A stretch of DNA of 64,000 nucleotides from a phage: NCBI GenBank assembly GCA_018015315.1, contig GCA_018015315.1_3629.1; one strand, written 5' to 3'. Both the position numbers and the translations under genes were made by a program. Below, in pieces: positions 23,478 to 59,292 of this stretch. Below the pieces are notes generated by a model. The model did not search any database and had not been told where the DNA came from. It worked only from the letters and a program-made list of their open reading frames with translations. Positions within the stretch are counted from its first letter, which is position 1. Every line of letters begins with the position of its first letter.

Positions 23478-24844
23478 ACGTCCCCCTCTTCTGCTCTGGT
23501 TTCAAAATCTTTCCTGACAATTTTGTCTAAGTCAGGGAATGTTGTATTGTAAAACTCTACGACTCGCGGGTCAACAATAATATCAACTTCTCTTAGTGGA
23601 CGCAACAAGTTTATCCCTTGTATTGTCTTAACTCGACTCAAAGCAACATACGTCATCCCAGGAGAGAAAGCTCCGTTCTTTCCAAGGTCTAGGTTGTAAC
23701 AATCTAGCGTAAGTCCTTGACTTTTATGAGATGTTACGGCGTACCCAGATTTTAGAGGAAGTTGCTTGTATGACCCAATCACCACCCTCTCTATAAACTT
23801 CTCCATCTTCCTTTCTGCAATGTTGTATCTTTGAGATGGCTTATACTCGTTATTCTCCCACAACCTTTGCTCTATGTCAACCTGTGTTCCATCTTCAAGC
23901 TCCACCACCACCGCCTTGTTCTTAAATTTAACAATTGTGGCACGTGTTCCGTTAACATAATAAGGTACTTTGTGCGTCGGGTCAACATCGTTGGCGGTTA
24001 TCATAACCTTCATGCCAATTTTCAACTTCATCTCCTGCTCAACTGGCAGGGTGGAGGGAAACTTACCTTTCATTTCACCAGTGTATACCTTTTCTGGGGC
24101 GTTGATGGCATCATAGAACCTTCTGTTCACTTCCTCCGCTTGTTTGTTGGTGGCGCAAATTGTGAGAGCGTCTGTTGGTACACCGCCTTTGTAACAACGA
24201 GCATTAAGTTCTGCTACAACCTCTTTTATGCGACGACCCTCACGAACACAGTTGAGCATTGTGGCAAATCGAATAGACTCCTGTCGGAACTGATCTACTA
24301 GGGCTATGTTGTGGAGGTCAAGCTCTTTCCAAGATTCGGTATAGCAACACAGGTCCGTATGGTAGAAGTTGAAGTAGGCTTCCTTCTCCATAGAAGATAC
24401 AACAGGAGGTGCTTGGTAAAAATCGCCAAACAATATGACCTGTATGCCTCCGAAAGGTTTGTCATTTTTTCGAAGGAAGCGGAGTTTCCTATCCATCTCT
24501 ATAAACTTATCAGCACGGATCATAGAGATTTCATCGATAATTAGGATGGTAAATGCCTTGCTTTTCAAAGGCTTTGCTGTTTTTGCCCTTATTGCAGTCC
24601 AGTCCGACTCCATGCTCACACCTGCTGCAAGATCGAATGTTCGGTGTGCTGTTGCTCCATTAACGTTTAATGCGGCTACCCCTGTCGGGGCAACCGTTAT
24701 GCAAGAGTCTCCATACATGGACTGGATCATGTTGATGAGGTATGTCTTCCCACAACCTGCGGGTCCTGAAACGAAGACATTCTCACCGCTCATGATTGCA
24801 ATGAGGGCAGCATCTGTGCCTACGTCATACTGCCCTTTTTCCAT
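23474..24844 (-). CDS. PIF1/Dda-like superfamily 1 DNA helicase
   Basis: Walker A GPAGCGKT; ITVAPTGVAA; ILIIDEISM; GDFYQAPPV; C-terminal ALSRVKT. Confidence 0.85.
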   Translation of the reverse strand: MEKGQYDVGTDAALIAIMSGENVFVSGPAGCGKTYLINMIQSMYGDSCITVAPTGVAALNVNGATAHRTFDLAAGVSMESDWTAIRAKTAKPLKSKAFTILIIDEISMIRADKFIEMDRKLRFLRKNDKPFGGIQVILFGDFYQAPPVVSSMEKEAYFNFYHTDLCCYTESWKELDLHNIALVDQFRQESIRFATMLNCVREGRRIKEVVAELNARCYKGGVPTDALTICATNKQAEEVNRRFYDAINAPEKVYTGEMKGKFPSTLPVEQEMKLKIGMKVMITANDVDPTHKVPYYVNGTRATIVKFKNKAVVVELEDGTQVDIEQRLWENNEYKPSQRYNIAERKMEKFIERVVIGSYKQLPLKSGYAVTSHKSQGLTLDCYNLDLGKNGAFSPGMTYVALSRVKTIQGINLLRPLREVDIIVDPRVVEFYNTTFPDLDKIVRKDFETRAEEGDV

Positions 24845-26049
24845 TACGCCTCCTCGTAGATAATGTCGATGATGTTACCATCACGGTCAACTACGTATTC
24901 AATCGGATCGCCATCTTTGCGTGATTCCGGTGCTGCTACGATTTCGTAGCGGCATGCACGGCACTTAGCACTGTTGTGTTGGTATGGCACACTAACCACA
25001 TCCGCAGGGTCAACCATAACCATCATTACGGTGCCATAGCCAGCTGCATACTCTTTGCTGGCGCAGTGCAGGCCATAAGAACACGCAGCTTCCGGATCAT
25101 CTTCTACAAAGTTACGAGGCATGGATACAAAAGCACCCTGGTATTGTGGAACTTTACCGCTGTGCCAATCCACCCACTTGCCTCCGTTAAACTGAACCCC
25201 TTTATAGCAAATGATTCGACCATCTTCTGCAACCTGGATGTCATTAGCCTGCATGAAATCGTAGAGCATGTTCACAGATTTTGCAGACGGGTTGCGTAGC
25301 AGACGGACAAGGAATTTAACATATCGGTCGTCCAGTGTTCCATCTACATAATCTTCCTCAATTTTCTTTGCAATGGTAGATTGCATCTCTACACCGTAGT
25401 AATAGAGCTTACCATCTTTCATAATCAGGTTGTCTGCAAGTGTAGTGAACTCATTCTTGCGTTCCAACCAGACAAGGATTTCACCAATTGCCTCGTCATA
25501 TTTCTGAACAGAGATATGGTCGAAGACTTTCTGGTAAACTTCTTCACTTTCACTGCGGCGAATTTCAAAAATACCTTCGTTACAGGTGATCTGGAGGAGT
25601 TCCCCGCAAATAACTACCAAAGGCTCGATGCTTCGAGTCTGTTGCTGAGACACACTGCTCACCACCTCCAGCACCGGATCTTTGACTTCTACTAAAGGTT
25701 CTTCTGACTTGATTGCCACCCCAGTGAACCCCACACCGTGAACAACGCACAGTGGGTATACCACACTCCAACGTTTAACGGAACCTTCTCCTGAATCTAA
25801 GATCATGGCGTACTTACCGTTGTCTTCCAGTCCGTAGCGGAATAAACGGGCCTCTTCGCGGGTTTCAAAATCCTCACGGGTATAGCAGACACTATCTCGG
25901 TCAGGATCAAACAGCTCTGGGGCACCCACTGCCAGTGTCCATGTTGTAGTACCTTTCTCAATAGCACATGTGAAACCCTTCTTCTCAAGTTCTGCACGGC
26001 GGTCGCGTGCTTCTTTACGAGTTTTGAAATGTTCGTAGATGAAAATCAT
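24844..26049 (-). CDS. rIIB: rIIB-like protein
   Basis: C-terminal GLHCASKEY, VDPADVVSVP, AKCRACRYEIV match recalled T4 rIIB; start set to MIFIYEHF with SD AAGGAGA just after rIIA stop. Confidence 0.75.
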   Translation of the reverse strand: MIFIYEHFKTRKEARDRRAELEKKGFTCAIEKGTTTWTLAVGAPELFDPDRDSVCYTREDFETREEARLFRYGLEDNGKYAMILDSGEGSVKRWSVVYPLCVVHGVGFTGVAIKSEEPLVEVKDPVLEVVSSVSQQQTRSIEPLVVICGELLQITCNEGIFEIRRSESEEVYQKVFDHISVQKYDEAIGEILVWLERKNEFTTLADNLIMKDGKLYYYGVEMQSTIAKKIEEDYVDGTLDDRYVKFLVRLLRNPSAKSVNMLYDFMQANDIQVAEDGRIICYKGVQFNGGKWVDWHSGKVPQYQGAFVSMPRNFVEDDPEAACSYGLHCASKEYAAGYGTVMMVMVDPADVVSVPYQHNSAKCRACRYEIVAAPESRKDGDPIEYVVDRDGNIIDIIYEEA

Positions 26050-26059
26050 AGCTGTCTCC

Positions 26060-28042
26060 TTATTTGGTGTTATTCTTTGCATCGATCAGTTCACGGTATT
26101 CAATCATAGCAGGAGTGTCCCAGTATTTCAAGCCTACATGCTTCAAAAGTGGGTATTTCTTTTCCAATCTTGCAATATAGGCCTTCCCGCACTTGACTCG
26201 GTTGGCGATTAAGATTTTGGCACGATGATTTAGCTCACTGTGCTTCCACGTGGTGTTACCTTCCCACTTGTGGAAATGTGGCCGATAATTTCCAAAATCT
26301 TGCATGGGAATAATTTTCCCTAATTGTCTATACAGGCTGTCATAAGAAGTCTCATTTGCTGCACGGGTCAGTAAGAATTTCCAAGCATCCTCTTTCAACA
26401 GGTGCTCCACATTCTTCTCTGTAACATACTGGCAATCAGGATCAGTCCAAAGCAGACGAGATTCAGATACCAGGTACAGATCTTCACCTTCAGGAATCTG
26501 AAGTGCCGCACGCACACGGTCATAATCTTGCTGGTAGATGTTACTCATCTGCCCCAGCCAACAACTTCCACGTTGGATATCACCCTCATAAGGGATGCAG
26601 TGTTTAATCTTCCGGAACTCTGCCTTAGTAATACGCTCACGGCGGAAGTAACCATCCTTCTCAAGTTTTTTAACCCAATAGCCTGGCTCATAACGAGTTT
26701 TTGTTTCACATTTCTTGACAGGTCGGCGAGGGAGCTCTGATAACAATTTGACCGTATCTGCAAAGAACGGGTGGTGTGCCGCTTCTTTAAACTCTTCCAC
26801 CAGATCCGTGTTCCGGCAATAGAAAACGTTGCGTCCGGTGATCTCGCTTAAGTAGTTACACTTATTTCGGTTATATTTGCCGTCTCCGTCGTTAAATACA
26901 AGGTATACACCTCGTAAGAACTCCGACTTTCCGTAACGAGCATAGCCTATGCGGCCTTTATTTAAGCCGCCAGCGAAAATTTCACAATCACCTAAGTCGC
27001 CAAGCCCTGTTTCTTCCCAACGGTTCCACATAAAGTTTTTGCCGAAGATGTGTCCGAACACCCCACTATTCTTCATCATTTCACGTGCTTCTGCGGAGGT
27101 TTTTGCCGTCTCCAGTTCTGCAACAACTTCTGCCCCGCGAAGACGTATACCTTCTTTGACAAAGGCCTCCAGGCGATCCTGGAATCCACCGTCGTCATGG
27201 CCCTCTATGGTCCATTCACGCCCAGGGTTAATATTACAATCCCCAATAGGAATTTCCACGCAGATTGCAGGGTAATCGGTCAATGTCTCCAGGAACTTAG
27301 AGCGGTAAGGTTGGTGACCCATCACAACACGGCTCTCATCAGAACTGGTATAACCTTTCAGGATGGTCATTTTCCAGCCATCCTTCTCGTAATGATACTG
27401 TGCCTCAACCTTATCACCTTCTAACATCTTACTGGTCATGGGATCGGTGACGGTGAACGGAAACTTCGCATAGCGTAAGCACGATGCAATAGCAGTGCGA
27501 TATTTCAGGACATGCTCTTTCTTAACATGGAACTGAACTTTTACCCCGTTGTGCTCTTCAGTCTTCCGCTCGCGGATCTTGGTAACGTTTGGGATACCCT
27601 GATCCAAGAACAATAGATATGTGCTTTCAACACCATTATGCACACTGATCACATCGAAAGTGTCCACCATGCTGAACGGAGCCTTTGAACCAACACCTTT
27701 ATTACCTACCAGAGCGTTGCTGTTGCGCTTGGTTGACTCCCCGAGGTTCATGAAAGTGTTGCGGACCATCTCTTCTGACATGCCTAATCCGACGTCCTGC
27801 ACAAAGAAGTATGGTTCAAGGTCTGTAGGAGAGTGAATAATGATCGGTACATCACCCCGTCCAGACTCAACATGGGAGTCCACGGCGTTGAAGATTGGTT
27901 CACGGCAGCTTGCCAGCACCTTATCTTCGTAAATCCCTTTAATGATTAGCCCAAAAGTCTCTTTGTTCAGAGAAATTGAGCCCCTGGTGACCTCCATATT
28001 CCCGGTTAGTACCGCTTTAGTTTCATTACTGTTTACGATCAT
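26060..28042 (-). CDS. rIIA: rIIA-like protein (N-terminal GHKL-type ATPase fold)
   Basis: N-box REPIFNAVDSH, D/G-box VQDVGLGMS, G2 GNKGVGSKAPFS, aligning with recalled T4 rIIA N-terminus; ATGA overlap with upstream hydrolase gene. Confidence 0.8.
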   Translation of the reverse strand: MIVNSNETKAVLTGNMEVTRGSISLNKETFGLIIKGIYEDKVLASCREPIFNAVDSHVESGRGDVPIIIHSPTDLEPYFFVQDVGLGMSEEMVRNTFMNLGESTKRNSNALVGNKGVGSKAPFSMVDTFDVISVHNGVESTYLLFLDQGIPNVTKIRERKTEEHNGVKVQFHVKKEHVLKYRTAIASCLRYAKFPFTVTDPMTSKMLEGDKVEAQYHYEKDGWKMTILKGYTSSDESRVVMGHQPYRSKFLETLTDYPAICVEIPIGDCNINPGREWTIEGHDDGGFQDRLEAFVKEGIRLRGAEVVAELETAKTSAEAREMMKNSGVFGHIFGKNFMWNRWEETGLGDLGDCEIFAGGLNKGRIGYARYGKSEFLRGVYLVFNDGDGKYNRNKCNYLSEITGRNVFYCRNTDLVEEFKEAAHHPFFADTVKLLSELPRRPVKKCETKTRYEPGYWVKKLEKDGYFRRERITKAEFRKIKHCIPYEGDIQRGSCWLGQMSNIYQQDYDRVRAALQIPEGEDLYLVSESRLLWTDPDCQYVTEKNVEHLLKEDAWKFLLTRAANETSYDSLYRQLGKIIPMQDFGNYRPHFHKWEGNTTWKHSELNHRAKILIANRVKCGKAYIARLEKKYPLLKHVGLKYWDTPAMIEYRELIDAKNNTK

Positions 28043-28539
28043 TTATTGCGCTCCTTGTAGTAGATATGGCTCCCGAATTGAGCTGTCCTCTGCATCTTTT
28101 TTGCCCATTTCGGTCGTACTTTGGTTGTATGGTAGTGTGTTGCTCCACCTGTTATATCCATAGCCATGTATGCAACATGGTTGTTATTATAGACTTTTAG
28201 AAGCATCTTTGCAAGACTTTTAGCGTGATCCCATGAATCTTTTTCTGTCACCTTAAAAGTTTTGCCGTGGTTTGTCCACGAAAACTGGTTAGGTTGGTAG
28301 ACAATCTTTCTTATAGTGTCTGGGTATTTGGGGTGAGATTTCCTGTTTAGGGTGGCAAACCCAGATGCCAGCATACCCATCGTGCCATCCCCTCTAGCTT
28401 CCCTGTAGATATTGCATGCTAGAATGTTTTCCTTAGTATCTGATGGCTTGCAAGTATGGTATACTTTTTGTTTTGGTGCTGCAACAACAGGCAGCGATAA
28501 AAATGCGCTCAAAATAATAGCAAAGATCTTAATTTTCAC
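28039..28539 (-). CDS. secreted cell-wall hydrolase, SleB-like domain with signal peptide
   Basis: N-terminal MKIKIFAIILSAFLSLPVVAAP; motif NIYREARGDG typical of SleB/Hydrolase_2; GTG start with GGAG SD; co-directional with rIIA/rIIB. Confidence 0.7.
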   Translation of the reverse strand: MKIKIFAIILSAFLSLPVVAAPKQKVYHTCKPSDTKENILACNIYREARGDGTMGMLASGFATLNRKSHPKYPDTIRKIVYQPNQFSWTNHGKTFKVTEKDSWDHAKSLAKMLLKVYNNNHVAYMAMDITGGATHYHTTKVRPKWAKKMQRTAQFGSHIYYKERNK

Positions 28540-28540
28540 A

Positions 28541-28566
28541 ATAACTCCAAATAGAAAATCCCCGCC
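28541..28566 (-). terminator. intrinsic terminator, UUCG-loop family
   Basis: CCCCGC-UUCG-GCGGGG then AUUUUCUAUUU. Confidence 0.55.
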
Positions 28567-28587
28567 GAAGCGGGGTGGTCTTAGAAA

Positions 28588-28968
28588 TTAATCGTAGTGT
28601 GCCAAAATCTCTCCATCGTTGCAAGTTCCCTCTACAAAGTTATGAAGATTCATGCACTCATCTTGATAGAAGAATTTACCGCTTTTCAGCCGTAAGCCAA
28701 ACAACTCCGCATCTCCACGATGGCAAGCCTCTACAAGTTCATAGATTTCATACGGCAACTCTCCGTCGTCATGGAAGAACCCAGCCTTATCGTTGACATA
28801 GATGAAGAAATAATCACTGCTATCGCAAGCGTCCAATATTTTAAACCAGATTTCATCTACATCTTTTTCTCGGATATCGATCACGCAAGTGGAGCTGCAT
28901 TCGTACTCCTTCTCCGGCTCCTCGGTCAATACCACCAGGTAGTTTCCCCGCTTACCTACTTTAGCCAT
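28588..28968 (-). CDS. hypothetical protein (126 aa)
   Basis: ORF track; terminator 28541-28566 follows. Confidence 0.5.
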   Translation of the reverse strand: MAKVGKRGNYLVVLTEEPEKEYECSSTCVIDIREKDVDEIWFKILDACDSSDYFFIYVNDKAGFFHDDGELPYEIYELVEACHRGDAELFGLRLKSGKFFYQDECMNLHNFVEGTCNDGEILAHYD

Positions 28969-28977
28969 ACAACCTCC

Positions 28978-30162
28978 TTAAGCTTTAGCCAAAATGGCGC
29001 TAAACTCTTCACCAAACTCTTTTACAATCTTCATCAGGTTTGGGTATGCTTTGATCAGCTGAGCAACAATCTTGTCACGACCTTTACCGATAAGCAAGGC
29101 ATTTCCTAAGGCATTAGGTTTCATCATCGCCATAAAGACTGAGAATACAAAATCTCGGTTCTCGTCCTTGAAGTTTTCCCAAAGGAAATCGAGGAAGTTT
29201 GCCACGCAGCTGACAAGATCTTCGTCTGAGATACTTGCATTTTCCATCATATTACGAATAGCGATACAACCTTCAGATCCAAGAATCCACAAGATGTCTG
29301 GCTGTTTAGGACCTACGTATTCTTTGCAACCTCCTGCCATAATCCGACCGATTTCCGGTAAGTTGCGTTTCTTGGTGTGGTAAGTCCAGATCTCTACCGC
29401 TGCAGTGTGACCAATAGCGCCTTGCAGAAGAACACGGGCCATAGCGTCAGAAATAATACCACTGTCAAAATCGTGCAAAATATCAGATGCAGCAACCCAA
29501 GATCGCGGTGTGGCAAAAGATGGACAATTAATCTCAGCCATGGCCTCATAATTATCGATAGCTGATGGAACTCTTTTCAGATATCCAATTACAGAGGAGT
29601 GCACCCCATTAAGGAATGCGTAGTCCTCAATAAACACCTCTGCATTGCTTGTAACTTCTACAATGATAAAACGGTTAGCCAGAGGGGCTTCGAGCGCCGA
29701 AAGAACCGCACCATCTGTAGAACGGTTACCAGCAGCCACAAAAACAGAGCCTTTAGGGAATGCATAGGTGCCGCACTTGTGGTCGAGCATAATTTGCATT
29801 GCAACCTTTTGCAGGTAGTTATCTGCATGAGTGAGCTCATCAAGAAAGATAATTCCGCTCCAGTCAGGATCCGCAGGCCAAAATTCTGGAATTGCAAACA
29901 CTGTACGTGTAGTTCCATCCGCTTCTACAGGGATAGGTAGCCCAGATAAGTCGGCAGGATCTTTATCTGACAGCCGCACGTCAACCAGGTTGTCATCTCG
30001 CTCACCGAACATATTGTCGGCGATCTGCTTCATCACCTGGCTCTTTCCCACGCCCATTGGTCCTAAAATCAGGACAGATCGGTTATGACGCTGGGCAAAC
30101 TGAATGATAGCTGGCAACTCACGGACAGTGATTTGACCACTTTCAAATACGTTTCTTGACAT
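28978..30162 (-). CDS. MoxR/CbbQ-like AAA+ ATPase
   Basis: Walker A GPMGVGKS; Walker B IIFLDELTHAD; 394 aa. Confidence 0.75.
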   Translation of the reverse strand: MSRNVFESGQITVRELPAIIQFAQRHNRSVLILGPMGVGKSQVMKQIADNMFGERDDNLVDVRLSDKDPADLSGLPIPVEADGTTRTVFAIPEFWPADPDWSGIIFLDELTHADNYLQKVAMQIMLDHKCGTYAFPKGSVFVAAGNRSTDGAVLSALEAPLANRFIIVEVTSNAEVFIEDYAFLNGVHSSVIGYLKRVPSAIDNYEAMAEINCPSFATPRSWVAASDILHDFDSGIISDAMARVLLQGAIGHTAAVEIWTYHTKKRNLPEIGRIMAGGCKEYVGPKQPDILWILGSEGCIAIRNMMENASISDEDLVSCVANFLDFLWENFKDENRDFVFSVFMAMMKPNALGNALLIGKGRDKIVAQLIKAYPNLMKIVKEFGEEFSAILAKA

Positions 30163-32700: not shown

Positions 32701-32729
32701 ACTATATCGGAGATTTAGAGTAAAGTCAA
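32701..32729 (-). promoter_or_regulatory. sigma70-type promoter, leftward arm of divergent pair
   Basis: -35 TTGACT, 17-nt spacer, -10 TATAGT; reads into gene 31761..32660. Confidence 0.5.
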
Positions 32730-33780: not shown

Positions 33781-33813
33781 TGACAGGGGCCAATGGCCCC
33801 TTCTGGAGTTTTA

Positions 33814-35274
33814 ATGGATATCAGAAGTTCAGAAATCATTGCCTCACAAAAAGATGATGCCCTGAGAATGTTGCAGGCTGCACGTATGTATCTCCTTGAA
33901 AAGCTGCCGTTTTATGGCACACTGCTGTCAGGATTGCAGTTCGTAGAAAACCATACATGGTGCTCCACCATGGCAACCGACCATAAACGCATCTATTACA
34001 GTCCTGAGTTCATTATGGGGTTGGCTGATGAACGTAAGGCTATTCTTAAGGCTTCTCTAACTGACGAGCAGTTTGAGATGGCTGAGGTTTTCTATTCCCC
34101 CAAATCTGTGAAAGAGGTGGCCTTTCTTCTGTCGCATGAGGTGGGGCATATTATCTGTGATCACCTGGTCCGTGGTAAAAGCTTTGAGCCGGAACTGTTC
34201 AATATTGCTTGTGATCACGTTATCAACACAGGACTTGTGGTTGACTTTAGCAAGCCTCCTTGTGTTTTCTTCCCGAAGGGGAAAAGCACTACGTTCGTGA
34301 AAGGTAAGCCTTTTGGCTTCTTAGCCAGCTGCTACTGCGATATGAAGTTTCATGGATGGATTGCTGAGAACGTTTATGCAGTTCTTGATAAGCAAAGAGA
34401 TCAGAATAACGGTAAAAGTAAGAACGGTAAAGGTGAGAACTCTCAAGGTGATAAGCGACAAACAGATGATCACATGAGTGGGAACGGTGGCACCAGTGAT
34501 GATCTTGGAAAAGCTATAGGGTATGATCAGCCACAACCTGTAATCAGCCAATCTGATAAAGATCAGGCCATGCAGGACTCTGGTGATATGCTGGAGGCAG
34601 CAATGCAAGCGTCCGGAGGCCGTTGCCCCGAGGCGGTGCGTGAGTTTGTCAAGAACAGAGGTAAGCCTGTAATCAACTATATAGACATCATTAAGCAACG
34701 CATGTTGTCTAAACGAAAGGCTGAACTGACCTACAGAAAACCTGGTCGCCGATCTGGGTCTTTGACCAGCACAATGCGAAAAGTTGGGGCTATAAACAAG
34801 AACCAGCACGTTATTGTTCCTGGTCGTAATCCGGAAAACACTATAGATATTGTGGTGGCTTTAGACGTTTCTGGCTCGATCTCTCAAAGAACTTTAAAGA
34901 AAATGTTCAATGAAATCACCGGATTGTGCAATCTGTATAAAGAGTTTAAGGTTACAATGTTCTGTTGGTCAACTGAGGTTGGAGAGGTTAAAGTATACAC
35001 TCGCGGCAACATAGACGAGATGATTAACTATGAGGTCCACTCAACATGGGGCACAACAGCTGCTTGCGTGTTCGAGTATCTGGATGCCAACATACCGAAT
35101 GCAAAAGATGTCATCGTCCTGACCGACCTATACTTTGAGCATAACTTTGAACAAAAGGTTGTTGACAACAAGTGGAAAAAGTACGATACTTTATGGGTTC
35201 TAACCGAAGGGTATAATAAAAATTATATCCCGAGCTTTGGGAAAACTGTGGAATTAATCGAGTACGCTAAGTAA
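33814..35274 (+). CDS. metallopeptidase-like + von Willebrand factor A domain protein
   Basis: HExxH motif LSHEVGHIICDH; MIDAS motif VVALDVSGSIS; start MDIRSSEII with GGAG SD. Confidence 0.75.
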   Translation: MDIRSSEIIASQKDDALRMLQAARMYLLEKLPFYGTLLSGLQFVENHTWCSTMATDHKRIYYSPEFIMGLADERKAILKASLTDEQFEMAEVFYSPKSVKEVAFLLSHEVGHIICDHLVRGKSFEPELFNIACDHVINTGLVVDFSKPPCVFFPKGKSTTFVKGKPFGFLASCYCDMKFHGWIAENVYAVLDKQRDQNNGKSKNGKGENSQGDKRQTDDHMSGNGGTSDDLGKAIGYDQPQPVISQSDKDQAMQDSGDMLEAAMQASGGRCPEAVREFVKNRGKPVINYIDIIKQRMLSKRKAELTYRKPGRRSGSLTSTMRKVGAINKNQHVIVPGRNPENTIDIVVALDVSGSISQRTLKKMFNEITGLCNLYKEFKVTMFCWSTEVGEVKVYTRGNIDEMINYEVHSTWGTTAACVFEYLDANIPNAKDVIVLTDLYFEHNFEQKVVDNKWKKYDTLWVLTEGYNKNYIPSFGKTVELIEYAK

Positions 35275-58000: not shown

Positions 58001-58855
58001 ACCATAGTATGCACCAACCAGCAAACCATACTTACCAGCAACATAACTAAGGTCTGCACCGCAAGCTTTCAGCATTTCTGCCATAATACTTGCTGGGGCC
58101 TCATCCATGTCAAACTCACCGTTAATGGTGTAACGTCGCTCACTGGTTCCGTCAGCGTTTTTTACTGCCTCGTCGCATATGTTGGCAGCCTCCTTAAAGG
58201 ACTCCCAGTTGATGGTTTCGTCAGGACATTTAAGGTACGTTCTTAAATAGTCTAGGATCACCAAGGCAGCGTTATTGGTATACACCTCTTTACTGATACG
58301 AGGATCATAGCATTTTTTACCAACCTTGACAAGTGTAACGTTTGGCAACCCAAAAGGAAACTTGTTAGGGTCAAACCTGAAGCTGGCACGTAGCCAACTG
58401 ATCCCTCTACCTATCATGTCTGGTGACCATGATGGGCAGTGTGTACCCATGAAAGGATCAGATGTTTTTCTGTCGTTATGTAGCTCCCACGATACCAGAT
58501 CTCCATACGAGGAAATAGGATTACCGTCGATAAGTATATCTTCTATACCTTCCAGAGGGTGATTGGCAAGAACAATAGCACAATGGAGGGTTCTGTCGCT
58601 ATCCTGCTCCAAAAACGCAAGCAATCCGGATGTGCGTGTCTTCCCATACACTACAGAGCAGGGTGCAGCAGAAGATCTGAGAAGCTTTTGTCTATCTTGC
58701 TGACTTCTGTAAGATTTGTTGCCCTCAAAAATCTTATCCAGAGTTCTGGTGGTAACAGTGTTCAGGCTGTCAGCCAGAGCTGCCTTGGATGCGTTCCAGT
58801 CATAACTTGAAGATCTTGCAGAAGCAACGATGTTATCAATCATTGCAATTGGCAT
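55016..58855 (-). CDS. large tail/baseplate protein with internal coiled-coil tandem repeats (1279 aa)
   Basis: Repeats such as TNKATTDLLNKKTEALDEKL and TNKATVDLLNKTSETLDQKI; SD GGAGG; strong terminator after stop; lambda-J-like assignment is uncertain. Confidence 0.7.
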   Translation of the reverse strand: MPIAMIDNIVASARSSSYDWNASKAALADSLNTVTTRTLDKIFEGNKSYRSQQDRQKLLRSSAAPCSVVYGKTRTSGLLAFLEQDSDRTLHCAIVLANHPLEGIEDILIDGNPISSYGDLVSWELHNDRKTSDPFMGTHCPSWSPDMIGRGISWLRASFRFDPNKFPFGLPNVTLVKVGKKCYDPRISKEVYTNNAALVILDYLRTYLKCPDETINWESFKEAANICDEAVKNADGTSERRYTINGEFDMDEAPASIMAEMLKACGADLSYVAGKYGLLVGAYYGPATMTLSEDCVCGEVKIYPEASFDKRSNTITGRFTSPTKGYSETDFPSVFVPEWIEKDGERKIIDIDYRFVTSPYQAQRVSAIFLRRARAGRIIEVTCNMRGFKFKPGRYVTMDLPSIGIVGQEMRVLEWEFTKKGGVKVKLRQDAKEWNDATGQLPDSGDVDIPISPSGVAQPQNFRYSVLQAGEVTHGVLAWDNVGTYAQNIVQVRKNGEIVWTAQTVEQFVRVEGLTKGFYTATVVATSYKGGVSPEAYCEFNIQAPEAPVSVEVKQGYFAITLIPHSRDLASVSTQYDFWTSGMTRLPDTSDATVTSKATRMGVGSTWTSEGLQNDKIYYWYIRTTNAFGSSQFVECAARCYTSIEDLMPQIDAEFKKTETYKELMSTLDSSIEEVENRVTELNKYMDGRVDEAFQQLGDRIGAVVTETTQKFEDVNGNITALDKKLVAAQNKFTNDLNTESGRLASLIETTNKATTDLLNKKTEALDEKLVAAKGELVEQIGGVESGYLAGDKTLDGKINTQRTELDASILSTNKATVDLLNKTSETLDQKISQTNVTVSKNYTTLDGKITTAKTDLNTLIANTNKATTDLLNQKTSALSEQITSARGEISTNKQAIKDLDGKLTSTKTALDATISDTNKATVDLINGTASAIRQELAVAKQEIIDDVGDVSELRAAVATTSKAVTDLEGKVNAQWGTKIQVDSAGNKYVAGIQLGMEGSGGQVQSYFMVSANNFAVYNPGNGTATLAFAIKNNQAFLKDAFIENGTISSAKIAQEISSNNYDGNGYHKYGWYINKNGHAQFMDVWVKGNINASSGNFTGAVNATSGTFRGDVYANNGSFRGTIDATGGTFRGRVEASVIRANQFEGAIVAHRTYGDCAPVYNSQQRVCRWRWRYVDNVSGQGKNVTFFFKLNGTRANSQLNAWIAGHQLLAGKKYGNDNDGMCAVGITGLGEQTIDIIIEIYTPWSTSNVTGITISCPTVVVSRSNSSFQGPWNESHD

Positions 58856-59292
58856 TAATACCTCCAGACATCAACAACGATAGAATCTTTCATGTCGAAC
58901 ATAAAGACCCCTTTATCACCTTTCGCCCAAATCTGGTTGTTCCAGAACACACCAGCGGTGAGCCCGTTCAGACCTTCGAAAATGACAATATCTCCACGCT
59001 GAACCTGTTTAGGAGTATCCAGCCGAGTCATAAAGAGATCAAAAATAGTAGGCAGGTGTGTGGTTTTGAAACGGAGCATGCACCATCTTTTGCTTTCCAA
59101 CTCTGTTTTATACGTTCCTTCGAAGTTAGAAAGAAAATCTGTTCCGTACTGGGCATCAACACACTTAGCTGCAAAGGTGCAACAATCGTGGAATCCCCAT
59201 TCAAAAGGTATGGTGGCCTCTTCGTCAAACACTTTCCACAATCTTTCTTGCCAATCCACTAAACGAGGGTGTGTGCTCATTAAACCTCCCAA
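58855..59292 (-). CDS. hypothetical tail-module protein, possible NlpC/P60-like peptidase (145 aa)
   Basis: FEWGFHDCCTFAAKCV and GDIVIF motifs; weak. Confidence 0.45.
   Translation of the reverse strand: MGGLMSTHPRLVDWQERLWKVFDEEATIPFEWGFHDCCTFAAKCVDAQYGTDFLSNFEGTYKTELESKRWCMLRFKTTHLPTIFDLFMTRLDTPKQVQRGDIVIFEGLNGLTAGVFWNNQIWAKGDKGVFMFDMKDSIVVDVWRY

Follow-up and report, generated by a model that had tools for sequence, protein, structure and literature searches.

We analysed a 64,000-nucleotide (nt) stretch of phage DNA (GenBank assembly GCA_018015315.1, contig GCA_018015315.1_3629.1; hereafter the window), which comes from a Vequintavirus, i.e. an rV5-like phage of E. coli. On its minus strand, at 28039..28539, the list of open reading frames (ORFs) and the sequence give a gene for the 166-amino-acid (aa) precursor of a SleB-like (Hydrolase_2) cell-wall hydrolase, with a GTG start and a TGA stop. 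We think it probable, with some reserve, that the product is a lytic transglycosylase of the SleB fold, exported by the Sec pathway, processed by signal peptidase I (SPase I) and made in small amounts at early or middle times as an accessory factor that weakens or remodels the host wall. The first-pass annotation of this DNA had hesitated between a signal-peptide endolysin and a periplasmic wall-remodelling factor. Our analyses point to an accessory factor of the second kind as the best remaining reading.

Over the 5.4 kb around the hydrolase gene, identity is 98.8% with Escherichia phage MiataMamis and 96-98% with dozens more rV5-like phages of the genus Vequintavirus. The protein recurs at 95-99% identity in 116 phage records and has 1150 remoter relatives in Klebsiella, Salmonella, Pseudomonas, Vibrio and other phages; across genera it is about 50% conserved and its ORF is intact. 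It is the Vequintavirus orthologue of bas54_0065 of phage Bas54 and of CB7_83 of phage CB7, a 'putative cell wall hydrolase'. It shares 165 of 166 aa with the Bas54 protein, and the hairpin, the GTG start and the ATGA junction described below are all the same there. More than 100 records annotate a cell wall hydrolase or endolysin, the names in use being 'cell wall hydrolase', 'putative hydrolase' and 'endolysin'. The ORF, its domain and its junction with the following gene, rIIA, are far beyond chance, since the protein is so well kept in the 116 records and since SleB catalytic domains are all that its AlphaFold model matches in the PDB. The first-pass annotation had the coordinates of the ORF exactly right; it lies on the minus strand, encodes 166 aa and starts with a GTG preceded by GGAG. 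The Pr121LW record (L001 15240-15713) gives a 157-aa version whose start is a TTG within the ORF (L10 of the window protein), by which half of the signal peptide is lost; the GGAG before the GTG and the agreement of 166-aa homologues favour the longer form. Some 16-23 records named 'Campylobacter phage' (MG0656xx; host given as C. jejuni) match E. coli Vequintavirus genomes in this region at 96-99% identity, and their host label looks doubtful.

The assignment to the SleB family, already made from the letters alone, holds at the level of profile, motif and fold. The Pfam profile Hydrolase_2 (PF07486, SleB/CwlJ-type) matches residues 51-161 with E=2.1e-19 and 70.4 bits (cut-off 27), along positions 2-100 of its 100, and PHROG 938, 'endolysin', matches with E=1.7e-27. 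The motif NIYREARGDG covers residues 43-52 (nt 28384-28413). Its E47 (codon at 28399..28401, minus), which the alignments make the predicted catalytic Glu, is invariant in both the 10-sequence and the 69-sequence alignments of the family; other family-invariant residues are N43, Y45, T63, R66, F86-S87-W88, D128, P143 and W145. When compared with the PDB, the family profile matched the Bacillus SleB catalytic domain alone (4f55 and 4fet, E about 1e-13), the Glu of NIYrE being aligned with the Glu of YGESRGE. An AlphaFold 2 (AF2) model built from 69 homologues reached a mean predicted local distance difference test (pLDDT) of 91.7, and the only significant matches that Foldseek found for it in the PDB were the same two domains (E=6e-5 to 2e-4). 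The template modelling score normalised to the target was 0.79 for 4fet and 0.72 for 4f55, as compared to 0.57-0.59 when normalised to the query, with root-mean-square deviations of 2.7 and 4.2 Å, respectively. The protein thus resembles the Bacillus SleB/CwlJ spore-cortex lytic transglycosylases in the fold of the catalytic domain and in the Y-x-E-[AS]-R-G motif, whose Glu we take to be E157/E151 in Bacillus SleB. It is not SleB proper: the NCBIfam equivalog spore_SleB (TIGR02869) gave 48.3 bits against a threshold of 236.5, with only its C-terminal catalytic part (83-201) aligned. Unlike Bacillus SleB, to which it is 20-24% identical, it lacks a YpeB partner and an N-terminal peptidoglycan-binding domain; Pfam found no PG_binding domain there, and only about 25 residues separate the signal peptide from the catalytic domain. 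The catalytic Glu of SleB is essential for lytic transglycosylase activity (PMC12331253), and we infer that the phage enzyme would use the same chemistry in an E47-dependent manner.

The N-terminus has the layout of a Sec signal, as the first-pass annotation had proposed. Residues 1-20 (MKIKIFAIILSAFLSLPVVA, 28480..28539, minus), delimited by the hydrophobicity profile, are followed by APKQ and fall into a charged n-region (MKIK), an h-region of about 15 residues (IFAIILSAFLSLP) with Kyte-Doolittle 11-mer means of 2.0-2.6, and, after a Pro, a V-V-A c-region (VVA/AP). The charged n-region, an h-region within the usual 10-16 residues and small residues at -3/-1 are those of a secretory protein processed by SPase I, so that Sec export and cleavage between A20 and A21 are predicted. 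The mature periplasmic enzyme would consist of residues 21-166 (28042..28479, minus), i.e. 146 aa, 16.9 kDa and a pI of about 9.95. Its only two Cys, C30 and C42, would suit a periplasmic disulfide. The signal is unlike the Gly/Ala-rich anchor of signal-anchor-release (SAR) endolysins, as its h-region is short and strongly hydrophobic (up to 2.6) and is followed by the Pro and an AXA site. Export appears to be a property of the family: an N-terminal hydrophobic signal is present in 119 of the 121 homologues retrieved, the remaining two being fragments. Signals with the same three regions occur in relatives from Mydovirus, Henunavirus, Certrevirus, Phapecoctavirus, Menderavirus and T5-like phages and have AXA-type ends in most of them, including the orthologues from KB57, Hena1, CR9, VivaForever and T5-like phages. 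A large subgroup of 153-156-aa homologues has an invariant ...LLLSTASC(E/D)H with the look of a lipoprotein signal, and homologues of about 130 aa without any signal occur in metagenomic viral contigs. For the CB7 orthologue, the likeness to SleB, the signal peptide and the conservation across Vequintavirinae have been published (PMC7344957). A SleB-fold effector of a type VI secretion system (T6SS), T6EC3, makes E. coli cells round up and burst when placed in the periplasm, in a Glu-dependent manner (PMC11148199). Hence, this fold is able to attack ordinary Gram-negative peptidoglycan. T6EC3 shares with the window protein the fold of a SleB-type lytic transglycosylase. Unlike the latter, it is T6SS-delivered, is not phage-encoded and has a cognate immunity protein; no immunity-like partner was identified at the hydrolase locus.

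Which enzyme lyses the host of these phages is indicated by the rest of their genomes. As the first-pass annotation had stated, no holin-endolysin cassette is found at the locus, where the hydrolase gene is flanked by a 126-aa ORF of unknown function and by rIIA. MiataMamis, the closest complete genome, encodes, about 70 kb away and adjoining the DNA ligase gene, a 156-aa lambda-R-like endolysin that is 62% identical to lambda R, and its spanins adjoin the terminase; neither the endolysin nor the spanins are found in the 64-kb window. The Vequintavirus lambda-R-like endolysin LysECP26 has been purified and lyses Gram-negative cells in vitro (PMC9728275). We considered whether LysECP26, 156 aa and thus similar in size, could be the hydrolase itself, and rejected this, as it is 62% identical to lambda R, has Glu20 as catalytic residue and has its orthologue outside the window. 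Nor is the 'endolysin' tested in Mydovirus KPP-1 an orthologue of the hydrolase, as it is a GH19 protein. The canonical endolysin in fact differs in family from genus to genus, being lambda-R-like, GH19 (Mydovirus KPP-1) or a T5-like peptidase (CB7). The SleB-like gene is common to all genera of Vequintavirinae.

Transposon insertion sequencing (Tn-seq) of the Vequintavirus Bas54 (MaxBurger) separates the two enzymes (bioRxiv 10.1101/2025.11.20.689424, Extended Data Table 8, gene-level calls). Insertions hit 32 of the 36 TA sites of the hydrolase gene bas54_0065 (mean insertion count 916), 90 of 101 in rIIA (bas54_0066) and 56 of 59 in rIIB (bas54_0067), and the three genes are called Non-essential. 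The lambda-R-like endolysin (bas54_0202, 0/24 TA sites) and the spanins (bas54_0001 and bas54_0002, 0/29 and 0/19) took none and are called Essential. This result transfers directly to the window gene, because the proteins differ at a single residue and the hairpin, start codon and ATGA junction are identical. Since the hydrolase is dispensable while the lambda-R-like endolysin takes no insertions, we conclude that the former is not the main lysis endolysin, the role that the first-pass annotation had offered as one option, and would instead be an accessory periplasmic muralytic enzyme. Holin candidates can be followed in the same data. Just past the lambda-R-like endolysin of MiataMamis, outside the window (L003 34207-34413), lies a 68-aa ORF of PHROG 4641, a family of unknown function, with a signal/lipobox-like start (MKDFLLAILFMAACLAC). 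Its Bas54 counterpart, bas54_0201, and bas54_0115, annotated as 'putative holin', are both non-essential, so that neither is established as the holin of these phages. The window contains at 58855-59292 (minus), adjoining a gene for a 1279-aa tail fibre, a 145-aa ORF that by position and gene order seems to be bas54_0030. The label 'cell wall hydrolase protein' of bas54_0030 is without domain support, the 145-aa ORF having no match beyond Pfam DUF6950 and a PHROG whose function is unknown.

Several features around the gene suggest that its output is held low. The Shine-Dalgarno sequence GGAG (28545..28548, minus) stands 5 nt before the GTG, and a GGAG or AGGAG is found at the same position in other genera. 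It is immediately preceded by a predicted intrinsic-terminator-like element (28549..28575, minus; terminator scan and RNA fold), identical in Bas54, made of a hairpin CCCCGC-TTCG-GCGGGG (28575-28560) and of a T-rich tail ATTTTCTATTT (28559-28549) that ends at the Shine-Dalgarno sequence; there is no space for a promoter between the hairpin and the gene. Counterparts exist in Mydovirus (AGCCCC-GCAAT-GGGGCT TTTTTAATTT GGAG...TTG), Henunavirus (AGCCCCT-ATCGC-AGGGGCT TGTTAATTT GGGAG...TTG) and Certrevirus-like loci (AAAGGCTCAG-TGWTAAA-CTGGGCCTTT ATTATTT AGGAG...ATG). The architecture of hairpin, T-tract and Shine-Dalgarno sequence is thus kept in four genera with unrelated stem sequences. The gene upstream of the hairpin is not the same in Vequintavirus, Mydovirus, Henunavirus and Certrevirus, and hence the hairpin travels with the hydrolase. 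In Vequintavirus, Mydovirus and Henunavirus, three of these four, the gene starts with GTG or TTG. Read together, the element and the start codons suggest that expression depends on terminator read-through and on weak initiation. In the minimum free energy fold of window positions 28530-28600 (minus), the Shine-Dalgarno sequence and GTG are base-paired, around the terminator hairpin, with the 3' end of the upstream gene where its stop codon lies (-20.5 kcal/mol, z=-3.49). We dropped this pairing as a regulatory feature, for it is absent from the upstream region of KB57, the sole orthologue folded for it, and it may be due to chance.

The gene lies within a long leftward cluster encoding a MoxR-like ATPase, RIIA/B, helicases, methylases, a primase and a DNA polymerase, and carrying many strong sigma70-like sites (consensus matches). 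In such a context, early or middle transcription by the host polymerase is plausible. The number of sigma70-like sites between 22 and 34 kb is not above that of shuffled sequences (26 against 21.1 +/- 5.2), so that timing is read from context, and we found no transcriptome of an rV5-like phage in the literature. The early timing supposed in the first-pass annotation therefore stands as plausible from the replication cluster, but the co-expression with rIIA and rIIB that went with it is not assured, because a terminator-like hairpin lies directly upstream of the hydrolase, rIIA has its own AAGGAG at a distance of 8 nt from its start codon (28051..28056, minus, inside the hydrolase ORF near its 3' end) and a sigma70-like site (TTGCAA-17-TATAAT, 10/12, 28186..28214, minus) falls inside the hydrolase ORF. 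This internal site, found by consensus scan only, could drive rIIA and rIIB independently. Further candidates by consensus match only are TGTTGACT-17-TATAGT at 32701..32729 (minus), where the leftward cluster begins in the divergent intergenic region, and TTGACA-17-TATTAT (11/12) at 30385-30357 (minus). Farther along, between 9000 and 22000, 23 of 29 sigma70-like sites are on the minus strand, five of them matching at 11-12 of 12 positions (TTGACA-16/17-TAxxAT), a clustering consistent with many host-polymerase units in the leftward early/middle region. Strong terminator-like hairpins occur at 21878-21853 and 11730-11709 (minus strand), and nothing in an Rfam scan of the whole window reached the gathering thresholds.

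Putting these elements together, the hydrolase would be made as a 166-aa precursor, exported by Sec and probably cut by SPase I after A20, leaving a basic single-domain enzyme of the SleB/CwlJ fold. E47 would serve to cleave the bond between N-acetylmuramic acid and N-acetylglucosamine in the host peptidoglycan from the periplasmic side, with no need for a holin. The GTG start and the hairpin ending at the ribosome-binding site would keep output low, the gene being placed in a replication cluster of the sigma70-type, early/middle kind. Its role would be accessory weakening or remodelling of the wall, and lysis itself would be left to the separate, cytoplasmic lambda-R-like enzyme.

A number of observations weigh against this scheme. 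SleB proper requires muramic-delta-lactam, which is absent from E. coli. The substrate of the phage enzyme must therefore differ from that of SleB, and its activity on ordinary peptidoglycan would have to be extrapolated from other Gram-negative members of the family. The hairpin might merely terminate the upstream transcription unit, or it could stabilise the RNA, and the weak start codon is not universal, as Certrevirus orthologues start with ATG. In sister genera, the hydrolase is followed by a holin-like gene with two transmembrane domains (TMDs), which fits a role in lysis there. The toxicity of the CB7 orthologue when expressed in E. coli is reported as 'data not shown' (PMC7344957). Finally, non-essentiality in Bas54 was measured in lysogeny broth only, on K-12 and two clinical strains, and is silent on the purpose of the gene.

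The position of the gene brings up a first alternative, to which we give a minor but real chance: a non-lytic periplasmic role in the control of infection, be it remodelling of the sacculus so that superinfecting phages are excluded or resisted, adaptation to hosts whose peptidoglycan is modified differently, or action on envelope integrity together with RIIA and RIIB. An exported protein, as this one is predicted to be, that is dispensable in the laboratory is what accessory host-interaction genes often look like, and one Gram-negative bacterium remodels its peptidoglycan with SleB-like enzymes of its own (bioRxiv 10.64898/2026.07.21.739787). The gene also stands with the non-essential rIIA and rIIB. 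It lies directly upstream of rIIA with an ATGA overlap, just as the first-pass annotation described, the TGA of the hydrolase (28041-28039) and the ATG of rIIA (28042-28040) sharing 28039..28042 (minus), as in Bas54. The rIIA gene (26060..28042, minus; 660 aa) matches PHROG 612 (E=1e-123) and Pfam HATPase_c_3. The rIIB gene (24844..26082, minus), 412 aa as the longest ORF, matches PHROG 609 (E=2e-60) and is so annotated in Pr121LW and Bas54; relatives place its start at M12 (nt 26049). The order hydrolase-rIIA-rIIB-helicase is found in three genera, with the overlap in Vequintavirus, a 169-bp gap across the record ends in Mydovirus and an intervening 77-aa ORF in Henunavirus. But this adjacency is lineage-specific. 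Certrevirus has the order hydrolase-small ORF-helicase and no rII, as seen from sequence and reported (PMC7344957), and other neighbours stand beside the hydrolase in Phapecoctavirus, Menderavirus and T5-like phages, rII not being next to it in CR9, VivaForever, Mendera or rutana. Among 80 diverse viral-contig loci, only seven have rII within 5 kb. A functional tie to the rII proteins, which the first-pass annotation called classically linked to lysis control, is consequently weak, given these seven loci and the retention of the hydrolase without rII in Certrevirus. Nor does the hydrolase show a significant conditional phenotype on the clinical strain CFE303 (log2 fold change, log2FC, -0.88, q=1; bioRxiv 10.1101/2025.11.20.689424). 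A role related to RIIA/B or to superinfection, for which the support is positional, is for us a rather unlikely proposition.

One feature of rIIB was considered in this respect. Its N-terminus is longer by about 140 residues, in which positions about 12-110 hold two copies of a repeat, F-x-[ST]-R-x-E-A-R...[KR]-W-x-V, that is kept in the KB57 and Hena1 orthologues; next comes a moderately hydrophobic segment (106-124). Pfam SPOR, a peptidoglycan-binding domain, matches the first copy marginally (18-22.7 bits against a cut-off of 21, with half of the model covered), a match that would suit an infection-control role. But Pfam finds no such match in the KB57 or Hena1 orthologues, a homologue search with this N-terminus gave two fragments only, the single-sequence AF2 model is poor (pLDDT 46.6) and rIIB has no export signal. 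Close by, a MoxR-like AAA ATPase (28978-30162, minus) and a DUF2201 metallopeptidase/VWA protein (33793-35274, plus), a usual functional pair, flank the divergent promoter region. Tn-seq of Bas54 gives bas54_0063, the MoxR ATPase gene, and bas54_0068, the gene for the helicase that follows rIIB, as dispensable on K-12 and as strongly depleted (log2FC -7.2 and -6.3, respectively) in a conditional-essentiality table that we take as K-12 versus CFE303.

It is less likely still that the hydrolase is a true signal-peptide endolysin, exported in advance and unleashed by a holin or by membrane depolarisation as the principal, or a co-principal, lysis enzyme. The idea has real attractions: the SleB-like gene is kept in every genus of Vequintavirinae while the other endolysin is swapped, many records call it 'endolysin', and the CB7 orthologue was described as toxic on expression. 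A small gene with one or two TMDs is moreover next to it in Certrevirus-like, Henunavirus and Mydovirus loci. In Hena1 this is a 77-aa ORF with two TMDs, directly downstream of the hydrolase. In KB57-like phages it is an unannotated 51-aa ORF (MKKFLVIFVCITPLCVILSLSQPMYWEQICGAYAIGMATAAFRLNINNCKK; KB57 L004 5536-5691) with a hydrophobic N-terminus, placed between the hydrolase and rIIA (which in KB57 starts at record position 1) and conserved in three related viral contigs (L015-L017). In Certrevirus-like loci the downstream ORF has 62-65 aa, with two TMDs scored in L020 and one in L018, and in both it overlaps the hydrolase stop with a -3 offset, which is the same stop/start overlap as that of Vequintavirus rIIA. 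The corresponding gene of CB7, CB7_82, overlaps the hydrolase gene and was proposed by the CB7 authors to encode a class II holin (PMC7344957). CR9, said in the literature to be without a holin-like ORF, has an unannotated ORF (MKNLFIWAITLLAVWMF...) over its hydrolase stop.

This arrangement is not that of the window. Unlike its sister genera, where a small membrane ORF comes before rIIA (Mydovirus and Henunavirus) or is present without rII (Certrevirus), Vequintavirus has the hydrolase overlapping rIIA directly. It has no small TMD gene after the hydrolase, and tblastn of the window and of the rest of the MiataMamis genome found no homologue of the Hena1 and KB57 membrane ORFs (best E=0.36). 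The hydrolase gene also sits in a replication cluster and not among late genes, its signal looks cleavable and not SAR-like, and the Tn-seq calls place the essential lysis function with the lambda-R-like enzyme. The secreted endolysin Lys44 of Oenococcus phage fOg44 and the SAR endolysins P1 Lyz and phage 21 R presumably share the Sec-dependent, holin-independent delivery predicted here. They are the lysis endolysins of their phages. The hydrolase, unlike them, is dispensable beside an essential endolysin and lies outside a lysis cassette. A partly redundant contribution to lysis by a secreted endolysin is possible, and more plausible in the genera with a holin-like gene next to the hydrolase.

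One might also speculate that the hydrolase, the hairpin with its ribosome-binding site and the downstream gene form a conserved, throttled and Sec-dependent 'second muralytic pathway' of Vequintavirinae, in which a membrane partner restrains or times the enzyme. The downstream gene would be the one for the protein with one or two TMDs in Certrevirus, Henunavirus and Mydovirus, and rIIA in Vequintavirus. We hold this to be improbable. If true, the RIIA and RIIB proteins of rV5-like phages would have a direct job related to peptidoglycan, and the benefit would be seen only under particular conditions, for instance with the walls of stationary-phase cells or with highly cross-linked ones, in other hosts or on superinfection.

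The two remaining explanations fare worse. That the protein is a catalytically dead peptidoglycan-binding protein, or the product of a decaying gene, might be suspected from its dispensability and high insertion count. It is very improbable, since the protein retains E47 and every other family-invariant residue, its fold is confidently predicted and conservation is high within the genus and persists across genera with an intact ORF. A virion-associated lysin for wall penetration at injection would be brought to mind by the SleB-fold domains that also occur inside very large phage proteins (about 1000-1280 aa) of structural look, but it is scarcely credible for a free-standing 166-aa protein whose predicted cleavable signal directs it to the periplasm, away from virion assembly, whose PA5oct homologue, gp368, went undetected in virions, whose CB7 orthologue is missing from the virion proteins of that phage that have an assigned function, and whose gene is dispensable in Bas54.

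The accessory muralytic enzyme that we favour has clear counterparts. The window protein is like the other hydrolases of Vequintavirinae (CB7_83, CR3_087, bas54_0065, KB57_245 and Hena1_02100) in size, signal peptide, Hydrolase_2 domain and location upstream of a Pif1-like helicase module. It is also like homologues in T5-like phages (Demerecviridae), Phapecoctavirus and the jumbo phage PA5oct (gp368), annotated as SleB-type cell wall hydrolases. These are small Hydrolase_2 proteins whose genes lie apart from the main lysis genes, in phages that have a canonical endolysin as well. The two of these checked for a signal peptide, in T5-like rutana and Phapecoctavirus VivaForever, have one. Unlike the window gene, these homologues, 35-40% identical to it, have other neighbours, and none is beside rII.

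Much of this was already public: the gene, its likeness to SleB, its signal peptide, its conservation in the subfamily, the candidate holin of Certrevirus and its dispensability. What is new here is the conserved architecture of hairpin and ribosome-binding site, the pattern of GTG and TTG starts, the family-wide statistics on export and the observation that rIIA follows the hydrolase with the same overlap as the small membrane ORF does in Certrevirus-like loci. The finding is real and was correctly described, but it is ordinary and reveals no new kind of system. It does show that the label 'endolysin' in several database records is misleading for Vequintavirus. More generally, several large groups of virulent phages of Gram-negative bacteria (Vequintavirinae, T5-like phages, Phapecoctavirus and others) carry a free-standing SleB-type enzyme with a signal peptide beside a canonical endolysin. 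A lytic transglycosylase present in the periplasm before lysis ought to endanger the infected cell. How the cell copes with it, and what the phage gains by it, is a small but real question.

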